DNA of 64,000 nt from Escherichia phage AV124. The stretch lies in sequence record OR352954. One strand, written 5' to 3'. Under the pieces are notes generated by a model. That model had not been told where the DNA came from and did not search any database. It worked only from the letters and a program-made list of their open reading frames with translations. Shown here one piece after another: positions 40,980-52,436 of the stretch; within the stretch, counting starts at the first letter, position 1, and each line of letters opens with the position of its first letter. The translations under genes were made by a program, and so were the position numbers.

Positions 40980-41438
40980 ATGGCATCATATTCTCGTCTG
41001 GAGCTGGTAGAAAAGTTCCGCAAAGAACTTGAAGTATGGAATCAATGGCAGGTTCCTCGCTCTGAAAAAGCTATGGACACTACCCACATCCAAATGGCCT
41101 CTCTTGACGAGATGATGTCTGCTTATGGGTATGTCCCTCGTCGTCTTTCGAACTTCCCAGAAGTTAAAGATGGTCGCTTTGGCTACCAGCTTGCATTCCC
41201 TCGATGTAAAAAGATTTGTCGCCCATTCTTTATCTCGTTACAGGATGCAGTTAGCATCCATAATGGCAATGGGTACAAGGGGAATCCATTCCGTAGGTTG
41301 GGGGATCGCATGAGTTTTGCTCTACAGAACCGTATTGTTGAGCAGGTGGCGGTTCAGAGGGATAAGTCTTTGGAAGGTGGTATCAAATCAACTAAGAAGT
41401 GGATTAAGTTCTATGAGGAGAACAAAAATGCAGGTTGA
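40980..41438 (+). CDS. hypothetical protein
   Basis: ORF in array. Confidence 0.45.
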   Translation: MASYSRLELVEKFRKELEVWNQWQVPRSEKAMDTTHIQMASLDEMMSAYGYVPRRLSNFPEVKDGRFGYQLAFPRCKKICRPFFISLQDAVSIHNGNGYKGNPFRRLGDRMSFALQNRIVEQVAVQRDKSLEGGIKSTKKWIKFYEENKNAG

Positions 41439-41610
41439 AGATTTTACCGACTTGAGTAAGGTAACAACAGAAAAGCTAATGAAACTCCGTGATATCGCTC
41501 AAGATTATCACGATGAGATGCAGCAAGCTGAACTGGAAGCGTGGGAAAGACTCCAAGATATAATTCATGAAATTGTCAAGAGGGCGAAGAATGTTCAAAC
41601 GTCTAATTAA
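41428..41610 (+). CDS. hypothetical small protein
   Basis: Track ORF trimmed to ATG after GAGGAGAA. Confidence 0.35.
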   Translation: MQVEDFTDLSKVTTEKLMKLRDIAQDYHDEMQQAELEAWERLQDIIHEIVKRAKNVQTSN

Positions 41611-41905
41611 CTGGCTCTTTGCCAAAGAGGATGACACCACAGAAAATGAAGTTCGGGTATTCGACTTCACAGAGCAAGGGCCTGGTCATGACATCACTAT
41701 GCGAGTAATCAATGATGGTGAATATGCAGAGGCAGTGGTTGCCCTGAAACTTGCGGATCTGCCGCCTGCGGTTGGTGACTTCATTGTCGTAGTTTTAGAT
41801 GGTGTCCACAATACTTTTGTGGTAGAAACAGTGGAAGGCGTGAGCCTGACAGTTACTAAATTGACCCTGACTCGTTATGAAGGTGCAGAAGATGAAACAT
41901 CGTGA
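41591..41905 (+). CDS. hypothetical protein
   Basis: Track ORF trimmed to ATG after GAGGG. Confidence 0.4.
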   Translation: MFKRLINWLFAKEDDTTENEVRVFDFTEQGPGHDITMRVINDGEYAEAVVALKLADLPPAVGDFIVVVLDGVHNTFVVETVEGVSLTVTKLTLTRYEGAEDETS

Positions 41906-42374
41906 AAATATTTGTAAGCTTATTGATGATTTGAAGCGCATCGCAAGACAAGCAACACCAGGTAAGTGGTGGATAGATTCACATGGCCATGCTATGGTTG
42001 CATTTTCAACGGAAGATGCTGGCATGGAAACAGTGTTTGTGACAGACGGGAATATGGGTCCGGTTGTGCGCCATGAGAACACAGGTAATCTCTCGGCTTG
42101 GCGCAATGATATGGATGCAACATACATTGCGACTGCCTGCCCTCAGAATGTGCTGGCAGTTCTGGAATATCTAAGTTCTGGTGCTAACGCGTGGAATACC
42201 ATAAGCACTTATATGGAAACTCGCCTGCATGGTGATGCAGCCGCTTTACGTAATGATGTAAGCCGGAAGTTGTTTGATGACGGTTGTCATAGTGCAGCAA
42301 TCCATGCAATTCAGTTTATCGAGGCACTGATTGACCAGAATATTGAATTAAAGGCCGAACTGGAGTCTAAATGA
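41892..42374 (+). CDS. Ead/Ea22-like protein
   Basis: QATPGKWW motif characteristic of the Ead/Ea22 family; start ambiguous (41877 or 41892). Confidence 0.45.
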   Translation: MKHRENICKLIDDLKRIARQATPGKWWIDSHGHAMVAFSTEDAGMETVFVTDGNMGPVVRHENTGNLSAWRNDMDATYIATACPQNVLAVLEYLSSGANAWNTISTYMETRLHGDAAALRNDVSRKLFDDGCHSAAIHAIQFIEALIDQNIELKAELESK

Positions 42375-42607
42375 TAAAAGATTGTTTTGGGAATGAGGCG
42401 AGAGTTGGCGACAAGATCGCCTTCTCTCAAGGCAATGCTGGAGCAAAAAAGTGGGAATTCGGGGAGATTACCCGGATAACCGATAAGTGCATATATTTTC
42501 ATGGTCGCGCCGGGGGAATGTTCCGTGACTGGCGTGATGATACCGAGCTTCGCCGTGGAGAAGGCGCGTTCGTAATTAATTTAGAAGCGAGAGGACTTAA
42601 TGAGTAA
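42371..42607 (+). CDS. hypothetical protein
   Basis: ATGA overlap with upstream gene. Confidence 0.45.
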   Translation: MIKDCFGNEARVGDKIAFSQGNAGAKKWEFGEITRITDKCIYFHGRAGGMFRDWRDDTELRRGEGAFVINLEARGLNE

Positions 42608-42884
42608 AGCCGCACTTCCTGTAGAGATCGAATTCAGTTATGACCACCCTACTGCTGGTGTCGTCACCGTCGAAGCACTTTATTCTGTGATGGAAGGCGA
42701 CCGTAACAGTCGTGAAAGCGATGTAGATTACAACGGTTTCCAGGATCTGGAGTATTATGCTGTATTCTCTGGAGATAAACAGATCTACGTTGACATTCCA
42801 GATGATGTCCTATACCATCATTTACGCGAGTATATCCGCAATCTTGAAATTGTAGGTTGCTTCCAGGAAGAGGAGGATTTTTAA
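42600..42884 (+). CDS. hypothetical protein
   Basis: ORF in array. Confidence 0.45.
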   Translation: MSKAALPVEIEFSYDHPTAGVVTVEALYSVMEGDRNSRESDVDYNGFQDLEYYAVFSGDKQIYVDIPDDVLYHHLREYIRNLEIVGCFQEEEDF

Positions 42885-43102
42885 TGAAACACGAAGTTAA
42901 AGTCGTTGAATTCGAATTCGGTAAACACAGAGGTCCAGACTATGTGGCTAAAGTGTTGGCAGAACATCTTGATGAAGGATATACTATCGTAGGGCAATCT
43001 GAAAGTGCTAGATATCTGACCTACACTCTAGTTAAAATTATCCCAATTTCCATGACGGGTACGGTAACAAATGCCGATCACCAAGGGGTCAGTTTCCACT
43101 AA
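42884..43102 (+). CDS. hypothetical protein
   Basis: ATG after GAGGAGGA. Confidence 0.4.
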   Translation: MKHEVKVVEFEFGKHRGPDYVAKVLAEHLDEGYTIVGQSESARYLTYTLVKIIPISMTGTVTNADHQGVSFH

Positions 43103-43805
43103 GGGAGGCCGTTTGAAGAAGAAAGTGATCATTCTTTATGATTACACTTCGGTCATGGCGCGTCCTTGGTTAGAGGCTGGCTATGAAGTTTGGACTTTTG
43201 ATGGTCAACATTCACCAGGAGTCACCCGCGAGGGTGACCTTGTTAAAGTCGGGATGTGGTTCTTCCACGACAAGACCGTTCAACAAGCTCAAGAGATCAA
43301 AGAAATGGTTGGTGACAATGTTCACATCGTCTTTGGTTTCCCGGAATGTACTCACCTGACCAATGCGGGTTCACGTCATTGGGCTAAGAAAAGAGCAGCA
43401 AACCCTAACTTCCAGAAGGAAGCAATGGAACTTTGCCTATTGGTAGAGAAGGTTGGAGATTTATATAATGTTCCGTGGGCCTTTGAAAACCCTGTCGGTG
43501 TTCTTTCTTCAATGTATCGAAAACCTGATTACATGTTTGATCCTAAGGATTACGGCGGGTATCTCCCAGCCAATGATATACACCCACTATATCCGCACGT
43601 ATACCCTCCTCAGGACGCGTATAACAAGAAGACGTGTATTTGGATGGGTAATGGCGCAAAACAGCCTGACAAGCTTCCTGTGAAGGAATTGTACAAGGAC
43701 AATCCGGGCTGGAAGAAGTGTGGTGGCAAATCCACCAAGACTAAAAATATTCGTAGTTGTACACCTCGCGGTTTTGCGGAGGCGTTTTACCAGAAAAATA
43801 AATGA
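43071..43805 (+). CDS. DNA cytosine-5 methyltransferase-like protein with degenerate SAM-binding motif (start ambiguous; alternative TTG at 43113)
   Basis: LEAGYEV (post-motif I region), FGFPECTHLTNAG (motif IV-like PC), AFENPVG (motif VI-like ENV); canonical FxGxGG replaced by YDYTSVMARP. Confidence 0.35.
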   Translation: MPITKGSVSTKGGRLKKKVIILYDYTSVMARPWLEAGYEVWTFDGQHSPGVTREGDLVKVGMWFFHDKTVQQAQEIKEMVGDNVHIVFGFPECTHLTNAGSRHWAKKRAANPNFQKEAMELCLLVEKVGDLYNVPWAFENPVGVLSSMYRKPDYMFDPKDYGGYLPANDIHPLYPHVYPPQDAYNKKTCIWMGNGAKQPDKLPVKELYKDNPGWKKCGGKSTKTKNIRSCTPRGFAEAFYQKNK

Positions 43806-45877
43806 GAGGGATAATGGGAAATGGACCGGATTGGGCGGCGTATCGCAAAGGCGGCAATGAAAACCCAAGAGCAGGTTTTGGAAGTAATCGCGGAGGCAAG
43901 TTGAGTTATAGTAACAATCGAGTAGAAGAGACCCTGGAATCAGTGCTGTCTGGCACCCGCATCATGGCTGTTCCCGAAATGAGTCTCTCTCTTGAAGCAG
44001 CACAGTATTTTAAGATCCGTTCTGCGGTATCCCCGGCGGATGGTATCACCCCGGTAGCAACATACTTGCCATATTATGATAAGTATGGGAAACTGACAGG
44101 ATTCAAGAAACGTGACTGGACGCTACAAAAGGAGAAGACGGGACACTTTTCAACTGTTGGCGCTGTGAAGGCATCATCTCAGTTCTTCGGGCAGCATGAA
44201 GCCTCTATGGGTGTTGGTCGTAAACAGATCAATATCGTAGAAGGTGAAGGTGACGTATGCGCAGCATGGCAGGCAGCGTATGAGATGGTCAAGGCTATGT
44301 CTACCAGCCCAAAAGCCAGTAAAGGCGTTAAGGACTGGGCCGATAGCATCCTAAAAGGTATCCGTCATATCCAGAACGACGAAGACATTGGCGGTCTTCC
44401 GACACTACCTTATGTCGGATTAAACTGTGGTACTGCAAACGCTGTTGATACTTTCGCAAACAACGAAAAGTTCATTCGCAGTTATGAGAAGGTAGTCTTA
44501 GGTTTTGATAACGATGAAGCAACAGCGTTAGAAAAAGAAAAGAAAATAAAGAAAGGTAAAGAAGCAACCGACGATGTAGCCAGCTTCCTGCTGTCAGAAA
44601 ACATTTACGTTGTGCGATATCCCAACGAGCGTAATGACCCGGATGGCTTTAAAGACATTCGTGACATGTTTGATGCTGGTAAGATACGTGAACTTTACGC
44701 AATGTTCACCAAAGCAGACGATCGCTATGTTCCTGATAAATTGATCGGTCTTAAGGATATCACCATTGAAAACCTTCGTAAGAAGAAAAAAGATGGTGTT
44801 CCATTACCGGGTATGCCGGGGCTTTACAACCTTACCAGAGGCCCTCGTACTGGTGAGCTTTGGACATTGACCGGGCCGTCTGGTGGTGGTAAGTCTACAA
44901 TCTCTCGTAAGATTGAATACGCAATCATTGATTATCTTCGTGATATGTCAATTCCCCGCCTCGATGGCTGGACCGAGAGTGAGAAAGTAGCTATCATCCG
45001 GCTGGAAGAGGATGAAGAAGAGTCTGTAAACAGCTTGTATGCTGAAGAGCTGAAGGTGGACCCTAAGGCATTTGTTGCTGACCCGGAGCAGTTCTTAACC
45101 GAAGAGCAACACCTTGAAATTCACCAACGCTGGATTAGGGAAGATAAGATTAAGATCTTCGATCACTTTGGTTCTATCCCGACAGACCAGCTTATTCAGA
45201 AACTTAAGCAGATGGTGTTCCTTGATGGTTGTAAATGGATCATCCTCGATCACCTGTCGATGGTAATCTCTGGTCTTAAGTCCGACAACGAACGTCGAGA
45301 CCTTGATAACATCATGACCGAGCTGGCGGCTTTCTGTAAGAAGTACGATGTTTTCATCTTATCAATCAGTCACATGAAGCGTAAAGAACTTCAGCTTCCG
45401 AAAGATAAAGATGGGAATCTATTACCGTTCTGGTATCCGGTCCGTAAAGAAGACCTGCGCGGTTCTGCGGCCCTTGAACAACTCTCATGGGTGGTTCTGG
45501 GTGTTGAACCAGAAGAGCTTCCTGACCGCTCCCGTGGACGTGTACGTATCGTGGTGCTGAAGAACCGCCCACACAAAAAACTGGGTATCGCTGATACAAT
45601 GGTTATGGATGACAACGGGCAGTTCTCCGATGCTTCCGGCTGGGAATGGGAAGATGGGATGTTCAAGCTTAATGGTGAAGTTATGCTTCGTCCTCAGAGT
45701 CTGATCCATCAACTCTCTCTGGAAACTCCGGTTGGAAAGGTAAATGTTCCGGCACCTGAGTATAAGCCAACCATCGATCTTGATAGGACACCAGTCCCTA
45801 CTCTTGATCCTGACGATGATACGCCTTTCGCCCCGATAGGATTGCAATACGCAAAACATGCAATTTATGTAATTTAA
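43802..45877 (+). CDS. primase-helicase (TOPRIM primase fused to DnaB-like helicase, T7 gp4-like)
   Basis: TOPRIM motifs IVEGEGD and GFDNDEA; helicase Walker A GPSGGGKST and DnaB-like WIILDHLS. Confidence 0.8.
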   Translation: MRGIMGNGPDWAAYRKGGNENPRAGFGSNRGGKLSYSNNRVEETLESVLSGTRIMAVPEMSLSLEAAQYFKIRSAVSPADGITPVATYLPYYDKYGKLTGFKKRDWTLQKEKTGHFSTVGAVKASSQFFGQHEASMGVGRKQINIVEGEGDVCAAWQAAYEMVKAMSTSPKASKGVKDWADSILKGIRHIQNDEDIGGLPTLPYVGLNCGTANAVDTFANNEKFIRSYEKVVLGFDNDEATALEKEKKIKKGKEATDDVASFLLSENIYVVRYPNERNDPDGFKDIRDMFDAGKIRELYAMFTKADDRYVPDKLIGLKDITIENLRKKKKDGVPLPGMPGLYNLTRGPRTGELWTLTGPSGGGKSTISRKIEYAIIDYLRDMSIPRLDGWTESEKVAIIRLEEDEEESVNSLYAEELKVDPKAFVADPEQFLTEEQHLEIHQRWIREDKIKIFDHFGSIPTDQLIQKLKQMVFLDGCKWIILDHLSMVISGLKSDNERRDLDNIMTELAAFCKKYDVFILSISHMKRKELQLPKDKDGNLLPFWYPVRKEDLRGSAALEQLSWVVLGVEPEELPDRSRGRVRIVVLKNRPHKKLGIADTMVMDDNGQFSDASGWEWEDGMFKLNGEVMLRPQSLIHQLSLETPVGKVNVPAPEYKPTIDLDRTPVPTLDPDDDTPFAPIGLQYAKHAIYVI

Positions 45878-45933: not shown

Positions 45934-48300
45934 ATTAAAGGTCTGTTTATACTGGATAACGAGGCCGATGGCCTGTTAGACGAAGTAACTAAGTACCATT
46001 GTACTTTGCTGAAAGAATTCGGAGTCAACAACTGGAACCTGTTTTTAGACCCCGCACACCCTGAATATGAAAGCGCTGTAGCCTTTGCCAGGAGCAAGAA
46101 GGATGCTAATCTTACAATTCGTTCATACGACGAGCTGGAAAGCTTCCTGAAGACTTGTAGAGCCATTGCGTGTCACAACCTGTTTGGTTATGACCTGCGC
46201 CTGTGGAAGAAGTTATCGGGCATTGAATATGATATGTTCAAAGACCCGAAGTGCATGGGGACGATTGGGGATACACAGGTAAATCTCTACGACACCCTCT
46301 CTATGAGCCGTGTGCTTTATCCTGACCGTCCATTACCTAACGGTTGCCCTGACTCTGTTCTTAACCCGGTAACCGGGAAGCGAGACCGTGTAGGTCCTCA
46401 TGGCCTGTTGGCCTGGGGCTACCGCGTAGCAAACAAGAAAGTTCAGATCGATGACTGGCGTAACCAACCCTTGTGGGAATACGTTAATCGTGTCTGGGAA
46501 GACGTTTTAATCAACGAGTTAGTATGGCAATCCCTGATCGATGAATCTACAGGTGCTCGCTGGCCTGATGACAAGCAGTTCATGTACAAAGATAAACCGG
46601 AAGGGATGCGGCAGATCAACTGGAAGAACGCGCTACGCCGCCGTATGTTGACTGATTACCTGATGATTGAGCAAGAAATTCAGGGTGTTCCATTCAATAA
46701 GCATGAAGCTGAAAAGCTGAGAGACCGTATTGATGTAATGATGAAAGAGATTGAGGAAGAAGTAGAACCTCAACTCCCGCTCAAAGAGATGACGAAGTCT
46801 CAACAGCCAAAATTCCCTGCTAATCCTTTTGATGGTGCAGGAAGAATTTCCCATCACGGGTGGAATTGGTTAGAATACAAGCTGGGATATCCAGTTAATC
46901 GTGAAGCGCTGGAATTCAAAGGTCCACCGAAGACGGCGTTTAAAGGTAACGGTGATGTAAGTGCAGCAGGGGAAAGATACTGTATCCAGAATGGTGTTGA
47001 AGACCCGGCAGCGATGCCAGACTTCATTAGAAGCCAGATAAAGAAAGAGAATACCCTTGTCCCATTGCCACCAGACCTAATGGAAAAGGCAATTGCCGAT
47101 CTTCGTGCTGGAAAGATGCCAGACCTGATGGTTCCGATGAAGATCTCGAACCAGGACGACATCAAGAAGTACCTGATCCGCGATGCGGGATGGAAACCAA
47201 CGCTCTGGCGTGTTAAAGATGTGACGAAAGACCAGTTCAAAAAGACCCGCGATGATGCGGAGGTTGATGGTCTGGTGCGTAAGTACATCGAAGAACTTGG
47301 AGAGTCCGAGTATAAATCTCTGATTCTTGAGCACTTAAATAATAGTGACGCAAAGTTCAATATCTCGGAAAACAAGTTCGACCATCGTCATGGTTCTGAT
47401 CGTGTTTACGAGGAGGTCTTCAAGAAGTTCCGACGCAAAGCTCGTCAACTGCCGACTTCACCACAGTTGAAGGATAACTTTGGCAAGCTGTGTCCTAACC
47501 TTGAAGTTATCGATGTTCACTTGGCTAAACAGATTGTTAAGTGGCTGTCATTACGTAACCGTCGTTCTGTTCTCGACCCTATTGACGAGGATAAAAACGA
47601 TACAGGGCTGTTGAATCATCCTCGCCTGGCGATTGATGGAAAACTTCCAGCTCGTTTCTCTGGTATCACTAACACCGGGCGTTGTAAGCACACCATTTGT
47701 GCAAACATGCCTAAGCCAGATCCTAAGGTGTTGTTGGGTAAAGAGATGCGTGGTCTCTGGGGTGTGACCGATGAATATTACCAGGTCGGTATCGATGGTT
47801 CTAACCTCGAAGGTATGATCGCGGCATGGGGTGCATATCAGTTCGATGGTGGTGAATACCTCCGTATCATGGAAAGTGGAGATGCCCACGCACGAAACGC
47901 CGAGGCATACACCAAAGCTTCTGGTACTCTGGTAACGCGTAACGGTGGTAAAGGGGTAACCTACGGCATCATGTATGGTGCTCAGGCAGCTAAGATTGCA
48001 GCAATGCTTCACATTTCCCTTGACAAGGCACAGGCGGTAATCGATGCTTTCTGGGATAGTAACTTTGGTTTGAAAGGTCGTAAGGAATGGCTTGAAAACT
48101 TCTGGGAAGCAACGGGTAAACGTTATATCCCTGGTCTCGATGGTCGTAAGATTTGGACCCGTTCTAAGCACTCTCTTCTGAATGCTTTCCAGCAAAACGG
48201 TGGTGCATCTCTATTCGATCTGGTTGGTATCCTGCTTCACTGGGAACTGATCAAACGTGGCTGGTATGATGATGACGTTCGTCGCCTGATTTACTACCAT
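45934..48300 (+). CDS. DNA polymerase, family A (T7 gp5-like), 5' exon; apparent non-canonical start
   Basis: Alignable to T7 gp5 (LDNEADGLLDEVTKYHC exo I region, GPHGLLAWGYRV, motif B KGVTYGIMYG); frame open from 45922 with no ATG/GTG/TTG before conserved exo I motif; exon ends at YYH just before motif C. Confidence 0.75.
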
Positions 48301-49071
48301 AAATAACATTGTGGCTTTGTGAGGTAACTCACATCGAATAACTCCTTTAATTGCTGGGAGGCTAAGGTTGATATTCACTCGATAATAGAGTAAAATACAA
48401 CTATGTTAATCAGCAGCGAAGAGGATCAATGAAAAGTGTAAACTACCACGGATATGTGGTTTACGAAGACGGAACCATTATCGGAAGGCGCGGGAAACCG
48501 ATGCAAAAGGTAGATAATGGGAGGGGCTACCTAATTGTAAGTCTCTACCTTAATAAAAGAACAACGACAAAAGCTGTGCATGTTTTAGTGGCTGAGTGTT
48601 TCGTTCCCAACCCGGATAACCTCCCAGAGGTTGACCACAAGGATGGTGATAAGACCAACAACCACTACACCAACCTCCGCTGGGTAACAAGAGGTAAGAA
48701 CATAGAACATTGCTACACGTTGGAAGGTAGAAGTGCAACAGGTATTGCCAATGCAAACAGTAAGTTGTCAGAGGGAGAAGTGGAGAAAATCTGCTACCTC
48801 TTGCAGGAAGGCTTTAGTCAAGCTGCCATCCGAGACATGGGCTACCCATACGGAACAGTTAGGGCCATCAAGCAGAGACGACAATGGCTGCATATATCAT
48901 CTTCGTATCATTGGTCTTAACGTTCAGAGGCCAGCCGAAAGGCGTAGACGAGCGAGTGCCGTCGAAATGGGGAGCATCCTGAAAAGGATGGTGATATGGT
49001 CCGATCCTACGTGAAAACGTATGGCAACACGTAATGGTGTGGGCGAGATTAACGACCTCGCTAAACTTTTG
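48301..49071 (+). mobile_element. putative group I intron in DNA polymerase gene, carrying HNH homing endonuclease
   Basis: Polymerase frame stops at YYH-K-stop; in-frame C-terminal continuation DEYQ resumes at 49072 and restores motif C HDE; upstream exon ends in T, intron ends in G; internal ORF has own SD. Confidence 0.6.
48429..48920 (+). CDS. HNH homing endonuclease (intron-encoded)
   Basis: EVDHKDGDKTNNHYTNLRWVTRGKN HNH core; SD GAGGA before ATG. Confidence 0.7.
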   Translation: MKSVNYHGYVVYEDGTIIGRRGKPMQKVDNGRGYLIVSLYLNKRTTTKAVHVLVAECFVPNPDNLPEVDHKDGDKTNNHYTNLRWVTRGKNIEHCYTLEGRSATGIANANSKLSEGEVEKICYLLQEGFSQAAIRDMGYPYGTVRAIKQRRQWLHISSSYHWS

Positions 49072-49419
49072 GATGAATACCAGCTCCAGGTTCCTAAGAA
49101 ATACCTGAAGAAGTGGGAGTTCGACACCCTGGAAGAGGCAACAGCTTTCGTCAAAGAATGGGAAGCAAAAGGCCGGGTATTTGACGGACATGAATGGAGA
49201 AAGGCCGTCAAAGATGACAACGGTGATAAAGTCAAGGATGCGGAAGGCAATACAGTCTACGAAGGTATTTTCGGGGACGATGGTAAAATCCACATCCAGT
49301 ATTGCCCTGTTGGTGAAATGGTCGTAAGATGTGTAGAGAAGGCCGCTCGTATCATGGGCAGTCCTGTACATATCACAGGGGCATATCTTACGGGCGCCAA
49401 TTGGGCGCAATGTCATTGA
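49072..49419 (+). CDS. DNA polymerase, family A, 3' exon (motif C to C-terminus)
   Basis: DEYQ...TLEEATAFVKEWEAKGRVFDGHEW...ANWAQCH aligns with T7 gp5 C-terminus (HDEIQ...RTEEIAQVV...WVGDHW...PNWAICH). Confidence 0.65.
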   Translation, partial: DEYQLQVPKKYLKKWEFDTLEEATAFVKEWEAKGRVFDGHEWRKAVKDDNGDKVKDAEGNTVYEGIFGDDGKIHIQYCPVGEMVVRCVEKAARIMGSPVHITGAYLTGANWAQCH

Positions 49420-49437
49420 TATATAAGGATATTTTAT

Positions 49438-50073
49438 ATGGAATTATGGAAAGACATCCCCTCTACGGAGGGGAGATACCAAGTAAGTAATTATGGAAGA
49501 ATAAAAAGGCAACGGTATTCTCGCATAAACAGCAATCAAGCAGCAAGTTGGGAGCAAGTATATGAAACAAAGATATTAAAGCCTTCAAAGGACACACACG
49601 GTTACCTACAAGCTTGTTACCTTGTGGAAGGAGAGAGGACTATAGCCCTGGTCCATAGGCTTGTTGCAGAAGCCTTCCTTGCACCGCCAAGTCAAGAGTT
49701 GATAGATGAATGTATGAAGGCTGGTCACAAAGTGGTTCTTGTCAACCACAAGGATGGAAACCCACTTAACAACCATGTTGACAACCTTGAGTGGTGTACT
49801 CCTTCTTACAACAATGAGTATAGTCCCCAAGATTATTCAAATAGGTCTGGGGATAACTGTAAACATGCGGTTCTTAAAGAATCTGATGTTGACAAAATAC
49901 TGGAACTACGTGGTAAAATGAGTCAGCAGGCCATCGCGGATATGTTCGATGTGAAACAGATCACTATCAGCAACATTTTCACCGGAAGGTCTTGGTCTTC
50001 TTATACCGGAATACCTCGCAAAGAGCGTAACAAAGGAAAACGTGCAGCTAAGACCAAACTGTTATCACAATAG
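49438..50073 (+). CDS. HNH homing endonuclease (free-standing, NUMOD-like N-terminus)
   Basis: IPSTEGRYQVSNYGRIKR N-terminal module; HNH core VNHKDGNPLNNHVDNLEW. Confidence 0.7.
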   Translation: MELWKDIPSTEGRYQVSNYGRIKRQRYSRINSNQAASWEQVYETKILKPSKDTHGYLQACYLVEGERTIALVHRLVAEAFLAPPSQELIDECMKAGHKVVLVNHKDGNPLNNHVDNLEWCTPSYNNEYSPQDYSNRSGDNCKHAVLKESDVDKILELRGKMSQQAIADMFDVKQITISNIFTGRSWSSYTGIPRKERNKGKRAAKTKLLSQ

Positions 50074-50081
50074 GAGATACC

Positions 50082-50309
50082 ATGTTTCCGAACAAACCTA
50101 AAGAAGCCACCCATTATTTTATGTATCCAGGGCATCCTACTCCGGGTGGTAATTGGGCATACTATGTCAGCTTTTTCAGGAAAGTTGCAGGTGAGTGGAT
50201 GGTGTACACTACCGATACCGACAATGAGTACCCAGGCTGGACATTAGCTTCTCGACGCTATAAGAATAAAAGCTTAGAGACTATGATTGAATATTTGCAA
50301 GAAATTTAA
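50082..50309 (+). CDS. hypothetical protein
   Basis: SD GGAGA before ATG. Confidence 0.45.
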   Translation: MFPNKPKEATHYFMYPGHPTPGGNWAYYVSFFRKVAGEWMVYTTDTDNEYPGWTLASRRYKNKSLETMIEYLQEI

Positions 50310-50405
50310 AAAATAGTGTTGACACCCGTTTCGAATAGCATTAAAGTGTATCACATGAAGACGAGAGATCTCGCTTCAAAACAACCTCACAAACAGGAGA
50401 ACGAA

Positions 50406-52436
50406 ATGACCGCAAAATATGAAACCGTACCTTATGCTGACTTCGTAAAAGCTCTGAAAGCTCAGTTCGCTGTCATGCAAGCGCTGGGTGCGCTTTACAC
50501 GGTCGATGTACCGAAAGATGAACTGTACGACCTGTACCTTGATTCTTTCCCGGAAGGCACCAACCTGATGTATAAAGAGCGCCGTGAATACGACTGCAAC
50601 TGCTGCAAGAGCTACATCCGTACTCTGGGCCGCGTAGTTGCTATTCACAACGGCAAGCTGGTATCTATTTGGGACGTTAAAGTTGGTGGTTATTACCAAG
50701 TAGTTGCCGATGCGATGAAAGCGCGTGTTGAAAGCTCCGAGATCCGCGATCGCTTCTTCCACTTCGAAGGCCGCGTTGGTACTGAGAGCAACGTAGTTCT
50801 CCTGGAAAATGGGAAAACCAAAACCTGGACCCACTTCCATCAGGCCCTGCCTCGCGAACTGGTTAAACGTGGTGAAGATATCCCTTCTGCCCTGGGTGAG
50901 TACCGTGACAACGCAACTGTGCTGGCACGTTCTCTGAAAGATATCGATATGGACTCTGCCGAAACGGTAATGGACCTGATCAACCAAGGCTCTCTGTACC
51001 GTGGTGATGAGAAAAAGCACATTGTTGCTGCCTTTATTAAGGCGAAACGTGCATACGACAAAACGCCGGAAGACCAGCGAATGAACTTCTGCTGGAAACA
51101 AAGTGAAACGCTGGGTAGACTGGGTCGCTTCCGTAATGATGTCATCGGAACACTGATGAGCGATCTGGCAGAAGGTGTTGATCTTGAAGCCGCAGTGAAG
51201 TCCTTTGAAGACAAAGTCTCAGGGACCAACTACAAACGTACTACTGCTCTGGTAACTCCGGGCATGATCAAGGCAGCACAAGAGAAAGTTGAAGCCCTCG
51301 GCTTGACTGAATCTCTGGCACGTCGCTTTGCGGTGACCTCTGACCTGACGATCAACAACGTGTTGTTTGCTGACCGTTCTGCAAAGGCCCAAATGAACGT
51401 ATTCGAGCAACTGGCAGCGTCAACCAAAAACGCGCCTAAGTCACTGTCGAAAGTGGAAGAGATCAGCATTGAGGATTTCATCAACAACGTTCTACCGAAA
51501 GCGGACACTATCGAAGCGCTGGTTGAAGGTCGTCTGACACCGAACCTGATGAGCTTGGTTGCCCCGGCAAACGCAGGTGCTCCTAACCTGTTCAAATGGG
51601 ATAACGGCTTCTCCTGGTCGTATAATGGCGAAGTAACTGACTCCATCAAGGAGCGTGTGAAAGCCGCTGGCGGCAGCGTGACTGGTGACCTGCGTGTTTC
51701 GTTGTCTTGGTACAACAGTGATGACCTCGACCTGCACGTATTCGAGCCTGGTGGCGGTCAAATTTACTTCGGTAACAAACGTGGTCGCTCAACGGGTACG
51801 CTGGATGTGGATATGAATGCCTATGGCAAGTCAGACGCACACCATCCGGTTGAGAACGTTACGTGGGAAAATGAGCGTAATATCACGGAAGGTGTTTACA
51901 AGGTTGTTGTTAACAACTATAATAAGCGCATGACTGATCGCGTTGGCTTCGAAGTCCAGATGGAATACAAAGGCCAAGTGTTCAACTTCGCATACCCGCA
52001 AGCTTTGGGTAATAGCAAGAGCCAGACCGTTGTAACATTTAAGTATTCTCGTGCGAAAGGTGTTGAAATTGTAGACAGCATCGGGCATACTAAGCAATCT
52101 AAAGAAGTGTGGGGCGTCTCTACCGAGACCTTCCAGAAAGTTTCTCTGGTGCTAAATTCTCCTAACTTCTGGGATGGTCAGACCAAAGGTAACAAACACT
52201 ACTTCTTTATGCTGGAAGGTTGCATTAACCCTGACGATACTCGTGGCTTCTACAATGAGTATCTGCGTGACGAGCTGCATGAGCATCGTAAAGTGTTCGA
52301 AGTGTTGGGTTCCAAGCTCAAAGCTGAACACTCCGCTGATCAACTGAGCGGCCTGGGCTTCTCGTCTACCCAGCGTAATGAGTTGGTTGTGAAGGTGACT
52401 GGTTCTTTCAACCGCACCCTGAAGATTAAGTTCTAA
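50406..52436 (+). CDS. hypothetical protein (676 aa), strongly codon-optimised
   Basis: ATG after AGGAGAACGAA; CTG/CGT/GGT/GAA/AAA-dominated codon usage and higher GC than flanks; hairpin after stop; track start 50316 likely upstream extension. Confidence 0.6.
   Translation: MTAKYETVPYADFVKALKAQFAVMQALGALYTVDVPKDELYDLYLDSFPEGTNLMYKERREYDCNCCKSYIRTLGRVVAIHNGKLVSIWDVKVGGYYQVVADAMKARVESSEIRDRFFHFEGRVGTESNVVLLENGKTKTWTHFHQALPRELVKRGEDIPSALGEYRDNATVLARSLKDIDMDSAETVMDLINQGSLYRGDEKKHIVAAFIKAKRAYDKTPEDQRMNFCWKQSETLGRLGRFRNDVIGTLMSDLAEGVDLEAAVKSFEDKVSGTNYKRTTALVTPGMIKAAQEKVEALGLTESLARRFAVTSDLTINNVLFADRSAKAQMNVFEQLAASTKNAPKSLSKVEEISIEDFINNVLPKADTIEALVEGRLTPNLMSLVAPANAGAPNLFKWDNGFSWSYNGEVTDSIKERVKAAGGSVTGDLRVSLSWYNSDDLDLHVFEPGGGQIYFGNKRGRSTGTLDVDMNAYGKSDAHHPVENVTWENERNITEGVYKVVVNNYNKRMTDRVGFEVQMEYKGQVFNFAYPQALGNSKSQTVVTFKYSRAKGVEIVDSIGHTKQSKEVWGVSTETFQKVSLVLNSPNFWDGQTKGNKHYFFMLEGCINPDDTRGFYNEYLRDELHEHRKVFEVLGSKLKAEHSADQLSGLGFSSTQRNELVVKVTGSFNRTLKIKF

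Follow-up and report, generated by a model that had tools for sequence, protein, structure and literature searches.

In canonical cytosine-C5 DNA methyltransferases, motifs I, III and IV surround the cofactor or the target base, and the Asp that ends strand 2 is the motif II acid that binds the ribose (M.HhaI). Bacterial and phage examples are the enzymes of the PF00145 type (E. coli Dcm, M.HhaI). Within the phage protein family PHROG 757, cytosine-C5 methylation has been reported only for the Dcm of phage K42, by LC-MS on retron msDNA (10.1101/2023.08.16.553469). Escape mutants of K42 from retron Ec86 disrupt its 711-bp dcm gene, expression of K42 Dcm raises 5-methylcytosine in the msDNA of retron Ec86 as measured by LC-MS, and no such rise is seen with the C82A/E128A/K175A/K176A protein, K175 and K176 having been mutated as predicted substrate-binding residues (preprint 10.1101/2023.08.16.553469). 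The host in these tests was dcm+ MG1655, and CCWGG was taken over as the target from E. coli Dcm without being mapped; the K42 genome is 95.4% identical to that of the BASEL phage KarlJaspers (10.1101/2023.08.16.553469). A further described system is CmoX (PDB 8yf3), a phage DNA cytosine C5-carboxymethyltransferase usually encoded beside CmoA and CmoY-type ligase genes, whose selectivity comes from an extra Arg that contacts the carboxylate (PMC12783734).

The locus compared here with these systems lies in a window of 64,000 nucleotides of Escherichia phage AV124 (sequence record OR352954), the window being the whole stretch of DNA that was analysed. The region is 97% identical to Klebsiella phages KpS8, BIS47 and Mydo (genus Mydovirus, subfamily Vequintavirinae), and the window itself is that of a Mydovirus. 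From the letters alone, an earlier note had proposed a C5 methyltransferase-like protein at 43071-43805 with a motif IV (FGFPEC), AFENPVG and LEAGYEV, and these are indeed present: the frame is the maximal reading frame on the + strand (244 aa), carries every motif quoted and contains YDYTSVMARPWLEAGYEV, FGFPECTHL and AFENPVG. Residue numbers (Cys93, Glu139 etc.) follow the 244-aa form unless stated otherwise. The features of the locus are the following.

43071..43805, + strand: maximal ORF (244 aa), as annotated in relatives, e.g. BIS47_252 'DNA methyltransferase'
43101..43108, + strand: Shine-Dalgarno-like AAGGGAGG, 4 nt upstream of TTG 43113, from direct reading of the sequence
43113..43805, + strand: probable true CDS (230 aa, TTG start), from homologue N-termini, pLDDT and the upstream stop
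43134..43169, + strand: motif I equivalent LYDYTSVMARPW, both canonical Gly replaced (G to Y, G to S), from the hhalign mapping and family statistics
43182..43202, + strand: strand 2, YEVWTFD, ending in Asp44 (motif II acid), invariant in alignment A1, with D in 224/235 of the family
43248..43262, + strand: motif III equivalent VGMWF, Trp63 standing at the Asp position of the 'xDL/GDV' of other family members and DNMT3A
43332..43358, + strand: motif IV, FGFPECTHL, with the predicted nucleophile Cys93 (43347-43349), equivalent to C82 of K42/KarlJaspers Dcm, from hhalign and family statistics
43482..43499, + strand: motif VI, FENPVG, with Glu139 as the ENV glutamate, equivalent to E128 of K42 Dcm, from hhalign and pairwise alignment
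43614..43634, + strand: DAYNKKT, its Lys pair equivalent to K175/K176 of K42 Dcm, the first Lys kept in 228/235
43740..43778, + strand: C-terminal TKNIRSCTPRGFA, a block conserved family-wide (Arg 223/235, Ser 211/235)
43802..45877, + strand: DNA primase-helicase (691 aa), its start overlapping the methyltransferase stop by 4 nt (ATGA)

Public annotations start the gene at ATG 43071, probably in error. The methyltransferase probably starts at TTG 43113 instead, because a GGGAGG at 43103-43108 immediately follows the stop (43100-43102) of the upstream ORF, the N-termini of homologues (MKK/MTKK) align at the position of this TTG in the family alignment, and residues 1-11 of the 244-aa form are disordered in the AlphaFold2 model (pLDDT<50).

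The window gene is a member of a known and already annotated family and is not new. Its product matches PHROG 757 'DNA methyltransferase' with E=8.9e-81 (residues 8-244 against profile positions 6-219/247), and the searches recovered 892 close relatives (90% clustering), 1189 representatives (50% clustering) and 1569 phage records; the match is therefore not due to chance. The 'DNA methyltransferase' label already stands on identical or near-identical proteins in RefSeq/GenBank, in several records of the KpS8/BIS47/Mydo type, and many family members are labelled 'Dcm-like C5 cytosine methyltransferase', the name used in the BASEL annotations. Nearly all members are 210-260 aa long, and the phages that carry them include Drexlerviridae, E. 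coli Vequintavirus (rV5, Bas51), Jersey-like phages, Campylobacter phages and the T4-like Phi1. The family signature ([YF]-D-x-[TS]-G, F-P-x-C, E-N-P, D-x-Y-x-K and R-S-x-T-P-R-G) is found entirely in the window protein except that its motif I has S instead of G. General profile libraries were of little help: Pfam gave no match for the window protein even at E<=10 and NCBIfam likewise none, and sequence searches of Pfam, NCBIfam and PDB returned nothing usable with either the single protein or the family profile, weak PF00145 matches being obtained from 4 of 40 relatives (best E=0.0039).

The relation to C5-cytosine methyltransferases, which the earlier note had put forward from the motifs, was examined by profile comparison and structure prediction and held on both. 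The family alignment (A2) was compared profile to profile, using hhalign, with a canonical reference alignment (A3) of E. coli Dcm and six phage C5 methyltransferases, and the two aligned along 123 columns, from motif I to motif VI (probability 78.6%, E=1.7e-5), which upholds the motif assignment. In motif I, canonical F-A-G-I-G-G corresponds to F-D-x-T-G-x in the family and to Y-D-Y-T-S-V in the window protein; G95 and G97 of Dcm, invariant in the canonical set, are both replaced, and the absence of the FxGxGG loop that had been noticed from the letters is thus real. LEAGYEV aligns with the canonical stretch after motif I. In motif IV, canonical G-F-P-C corresponds to F-P-P-C in the family and F-P-E-C in the window protein, so that with respect to the invariant F175-P176-C177 of the canonical set the Cys is aligned and the preceding Pro has become Glu (P-E-C), Glu92 standing at the Pro of the 'PC' dipeptide. 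In motif VI, canonical ENV corresponds to ENP in both the family and the window protein, FENPVG aligning with lENV. The C-terminal half stayed unaligned with the canonical enzymes in hhalign, where motifs VIII (QxRxR), IX and X (GNxV) and the target-recognition domain were not found, and a protein of 230 aa leaves no room for the canonical form of this domain. Compared with PF00145 enzymes, the window protein has motifs I, IV and VI in the same order and identity and the same catalytic Cys and Glu, but it is without FxGxGG and without a large target-recognition domain, the Pro of PC is replaced and ENV has become ENP. The C-terminal TKNIRSCTPRGFA block, which lies outside the hhalign alignment, is possibly the equivalent of motif X, and the DAYxKK and RSxTPRG blocks may substitute functionally for the canonical C-terminal motifs.

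The AlphaFold2 model, built from 24 relatives (pLDDT 88, pTM 0.86), has the C5 methyltransferase fold, and all 11 of its Foldseek hits in PDB at E<=1e-3 are DNMT3A, DNMT3B or DNMT1, the catalytic domains of DNMT3A and DNMT3B being the best structural matches. At the profile level the comparison of DNMT3A (sequence checked against PDB 5yx2) with the family by hhalign is statistically weak (probability 14%, E=0.002) but in sensible register. Motif I begins with F-D in both (VLSLFDGIATG in DNMT3A, VISLFDxTG in the family), motif III reads GDV against xDL and motif IV SPCNDLS against FPPCTDLA. DNMT3A nevertheless keeps a Gly after F-D and the Asp of motif III, both missing from the window protein, and DNMT3 further differs in having regulatory domains and partners. 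Taken together, the fold, the profile comparison and the homology to an experimentally supported member support the relationship of the window protein to C5-cytosine methyltransferases.

The experimentally supported member is K42 Dcm, through its KarlJaspers counterpart. In KarlJaspers (Bas06), the 711-bp gene bas06_0055 encodes C82, E128, K175 and K176 at exactly the positions mutated in K42, and its product and the window protein share 43% identity along their full length (E=2e-66). C82/E128/K175/K176 of K42 Dcm correspond to C79/E125/K172/K173 of the window protein in 230-aa numbering, with a constant offset of 3. Both proteins have the same family and architecture (236 and 230 aa) and both genes lie near replication helicase genes. 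They differ around the pocket: the K42/KarlJaspers Dcm has FDGSGK with both Gly, FPPC and a different motif III region, whereas the window protein has YDYTSV, FPEC and GMWF.

Conservation was counted in the family alignment (n=235), a sample biased towards the query's relatives. The first canonical Gly of motif I is present in 5/235, three of these being BASEL proteins added to the sample, and the second in 198/235, while the catalytic Cys is kept in 231/235 and the E, N and P of ENP in 232, 227 and 234 of 235 respectively. The second Gly is missing in 37 members scattered through the alignment while Cys and ENP remain near-invariant family-wide, which suggests that the motif I loop tolerates change. 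As far as the aligned sequences go, the norm of the phage family is the glycine-poor [YF]-D-x-[TS]-G, not FxGxGG. Accordingly, of the interpretation first attached to this gene, the kinship with C5 methyltransferases stood, and what had been concluded from the missing loop proved weak, a glycine-poor loop being the rule in this family.

In the window protein and its nearest relatives the loop is YDYTS or YNNTN; both Gly are absent and every catalytic residue is kept. Their clade without the second Gly comprises nine sequences (including P0002-P0008 and P0010), all of which retain Cys, ENP and the motif II Asp, and the window protein keeps the features that in canonical enzymes hold the adenosine part of SAM, i.e. 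an aromatic residue at the position of the motif I Phe and the Asp ending strand 2. They fall within a sharply defined subfamily, marked by FPEC and GMWF, whose members are about 60% identical against 35-45% elsewhere in the family and include metagenomic and prophage proteins, among them those of Vibrio, Serratia, Rahnella and Neptuniibacter. M29, P32, W33, W41, F43 and F90-P91-E92-C93-T94 are invariant in 24 subfamily members; the subfamily shows no exception at Cys93, Glu139, Asn140 and Pro141, which the family as a whole also keeps almost without change. Glu before the Cys and Trp at the motif III Asp position are two further marks of the subfamily: the residue before the Cys is E in 125, P in 92 and V in 11 of the 235 sequences, D and T also occurring, and the motif III Asp position holds W in 116 and D in 30. 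Judged by sequence, this subclade is at the degenerate extreme of the family's variation in the SAM loop, and that is the slightly unusual part of the finding.

As had been remarked, the primase-helicase follows the gene immediately, with the 4-nt overlap given above; the product of 43802..45877 is called primase/helicase in relatives. Vequintavirus (rV5/Bas51 WalterGehring) has a Dcm-like gene of the same family in the same slot, directly upstream of the primase-helicase as in the window. The Bas51 protein is 38% identical to the window protein and near-canonical (FDGSGG, FPPC), and the adjacent primase-helicases are 54% identical. Since proteins from metagenomes and prophages, including those of Vibrio, Serratia and Rahnella, are closer to the window protein (57-66% identity) than that of Bas51 is, the comparison suggests that the slot holds a different subfamily in the window than in E. 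coli Vequintavirus. In Drexlerviridae the homologue lies near a helicase, in a P2-like prophage of Serratia fonticola (L015, 6001-12468) it is directly upstream of the replication initiator gpA, and in a metagenomic phage it comes after a DEAD helicase and an HNH gene. What recurs across unrelated phages is proximity to replication modules and not to cofactor-synthesis genes. No conserved partner gene was found across four subfamily contexts (two Vibrio loci, Serratia and the metagenomic phage), and BLASTP of the window's upstream ORFs against the Vibrio neighbours found no shared neighbour. The small ORFs upstream of the methyltransferase have uninformative annotations in the PHROG scan, which over those ORFs (40980-43102) and four ORFs past the N-terminal part of the polymerase (48429-52436) found no cofactor-synthesis or hypermodification partner. 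Likewise, no CmoA- or CmoY-like genes were found among the window's neighbouring ORFs or in the four subfamily contexts, in contrast with the usual setting of CmoX.

Several observations were made alongside on these loci. An identical 234-aa Vibrio cholerae protein (P0029) occurs in two unrelated mobile elements (L005 8001-8705 and L006 8001-8705), one carrying ParB, an integrase and HigB, and a lambdoid prophage in which it lies beside a tRNA-type integrase; no homology links the neighbours in one element to those in the other, and the gene therefore seems to move as a solo cassette. In the Serratia prophage, genes encoding CTD9, MC5 and SMC/AAA_23 domains come after the homologue, possibly forming a defence cassette at a P2 hotspot. 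Bas51 (L003, 1385-4735) has a 441-aa putative N6-adenine methyltransferase, and in the window (40980-43805) the ORFs lying between the helicase and the methyltransferase gene do not exceed 165 aa; the retron paper on Bas51 (PMC12548924) concerns this N6-adenine methyltransferase and not PHROG 757. The ORFs at 41567-41905 (112 aa) and 42857-43102 (81 aa) match 'DNA ligase' PHROGs and are DNA ligase in the BIS47 annotation, and these labels are probably propagated misannotations because the products are far too short for a ligase. Downstream, the DNA polymerase is apparently split over 46006-50073 as listed below; that of BIS47 is a single 2643-bp CDS, and the split looks like a homing-endonuclease or intron insertion.

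46006..48306: polymerase ORF, 766 aa
48429..48920: HNH endonuclease ORF
49021..49419: 132-aa ORF corresponding to the C-terminal end of the DNA polymerase PHROG
49438..50073: second HNH endonuclease ORF

For a protein whose family membership, fold and conserved catalytic residues were observed in this analysis, the best explanation is probably an orphan m5C DNA methyltransferase that is active and SAM-dependent, has a SAM loop of non-canonical type and is expressed alongside the replication genes; the activity, the cofactor and the target sequence of the window protein itself we infer by analogy. It would be a compact single-domain orphan DNA cytosine-C5 methyltransferase of PHROG 757 (about 230 aa). 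By analogy with the canonical enzymes, the target cytosine would be flipped out of the helix, Cys93 of motif IV would attack C6, Glu139 of ENP would protonate N3, the methyl group would pass from host-supplied S-adenosylmethionine to C5, and beta-elimination would free the enzyme. Instead of FxGxGG, a non-canonical loop resembling that of DNMT3 (Y-D-x-T-x) would hold the cofactor, with Tyr23 and with Asp44, which is expected to bind the ribose as in canonical C5 methyltransferases, and the short C-terminal region (Lys pair and RS-TPRG block) would stand in for a separate target-recognition domain. Because the gene would be co-transcribed with replication genes, phage (and host) DNA would be marked as it is made. 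Counting against this reading, K42 Dcm (FDGSGK) and the Vequintavirus gene in the same position (FDGSGG) keep both Gly where the window protein has neither, and the latter also has Trp in motif III and Glu in motif IV besides its loss in motif I. It likewise escapes recognition by Pfam PF00145 and NCBIfam, and the K42 support comes from a preprint with the limits on host and target site given above. The literature on Mydovirus, Seunavirus and Certrevirus DNA yielded no measurements of m5C or other cytosine modification, only annotation-level statements such as the HHpred match to Ehmeth for phage CB7.

The alternative that survives best, though unlikely, is that the subfamily keeps Cys catalysis at cytosine C5 with a remodelled cofactor pocket and uses another donor, e.g. 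carboxy-SAM, or transfers a non-methyl group. Three pocket-lining motifs change together and are strongly conserved, as the residues invariant in 24 members indicate, and CmoX is a real precedent (PMC12783734). The adenosine-binding features are retained all the same, i.e. the aromatic residue at the Phe position and Asp44, and the residue newly placed beside the Cys is acidic and would be expected to repel a carboxylate where CmoX uses an extra Arg; moreover, the position before the Cys varies in the family (P, E, V, D, T) and its change may be neutral. The missing CmoA-like gene, ligase and conserved partner in the four subfamily contexts and among the window's neighbouring ORFs also speak against it, although the absence of CmoA/CmoY neighbours would still be compatible with the use of host Cx-SAM. 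The altered cofactor use raised in the earlier note is thus possible for the subclade, but the four contexts provide neither a cofactor-synthesis gene nor a conserved partner for it. The wider claim, that the subfamily as a whole (Mydovirus, related Vequintavirinae and the Vibrio/Serratia/Rahnella prophages) has rebuilt its cofactor pocket, through loss of the motif I Gly (both, or the first), motif III Asp to Trp and the Pro of PC to Glu, with new SAM binding or non-methyl transfer to cytosine as the outcome, and hence a kind of DNA modification so far undescribed in these phages, is held to be quite unlikely. The idea that the Arg of the C-terminal RS block mimics the Cx-SAM-selecting Arg of CmoX was dropped, the block being family-wide and present in K42 Dcm, which reportedly makes 5mC; it is further weakened by an apparent likeness to the C-terminal GRSWSVP of DNMT3A, noted by eye rather than by a tool alignment.

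An active C5 methyltransferase with a substrate other than duplex phage DNA, such as single-stranded DNA at the replication fork or RNA, is improbable. The lack of a separate target-recognition domain (230 aa against >300 in the canonical set) and the position beside primase-helicase or replication initiator genes would suit it, as would the sole reported substrate of the family, the retron msDNA stem-loop; the authors of the K42 study, on the other hand, read the target as double-stranded CCWGG in the msDNA stem, the nearest folds are DNA methyltransferases and an RNA-binding domain is absent.

The loss of both motif I Gly and of the motif III Asp could also fit a catalytically inactive protein that binds no cofactor and acts in DNA binding or regulation like DNMT3L, but such an inactive regulatory homologue, as the earlier note had envisaged, is likewise improbable, because the adenosine-holding residues are kept and the catalytic Cys and ENP Glu are near-invariant. 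DNMT3L has lost its catalytic nucleophile; the window protein shows no such loss of catalytic residues, and retention of the nucleophile would be unexpected in a dead enzyme. The subfamily and the Gly-less clade alike show little or no variation at the catalytic Cys, the ENP Glu, the motif II Asp and the Lys pair, and conservation is higher in the subfamily than elsewhere in the family. Weakly in favour of inactivity, E. coli Vequintavirinae and relatives were found exceptionally susceptible to the RM systems tested in the BASEL study (PMC8594841), so that a protective modification is not apparent in them; those phages carry the Gly-containing form, and their susceptibility was treated as uninformative.

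As it stands, and with the active orphan m5C methyltransferase as the preferred reading, the window gene is an ordinary, already annotated phage orphan methyltransferase whose value is modest, as a pointer. It points to a very large family of about 230-aa proteins, one member of which has reported biochemistry, that dispenses with the FxGxGG SAM loop and with a separate target-recognition domain. Learning how such minimal enzymes bind SAM and choose their targets would aid the interpretation of phage methylomes and the prediction of sensitivity to type IV restriction and to sensors of the retron Ec86 type, which a family member reportedly triggers, and the family is possibly a source of very small methyltransferase scaffolds. 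Should the Gly-less subfamily turn out to use another cofactor, this would amount to a new phage DNA modification.
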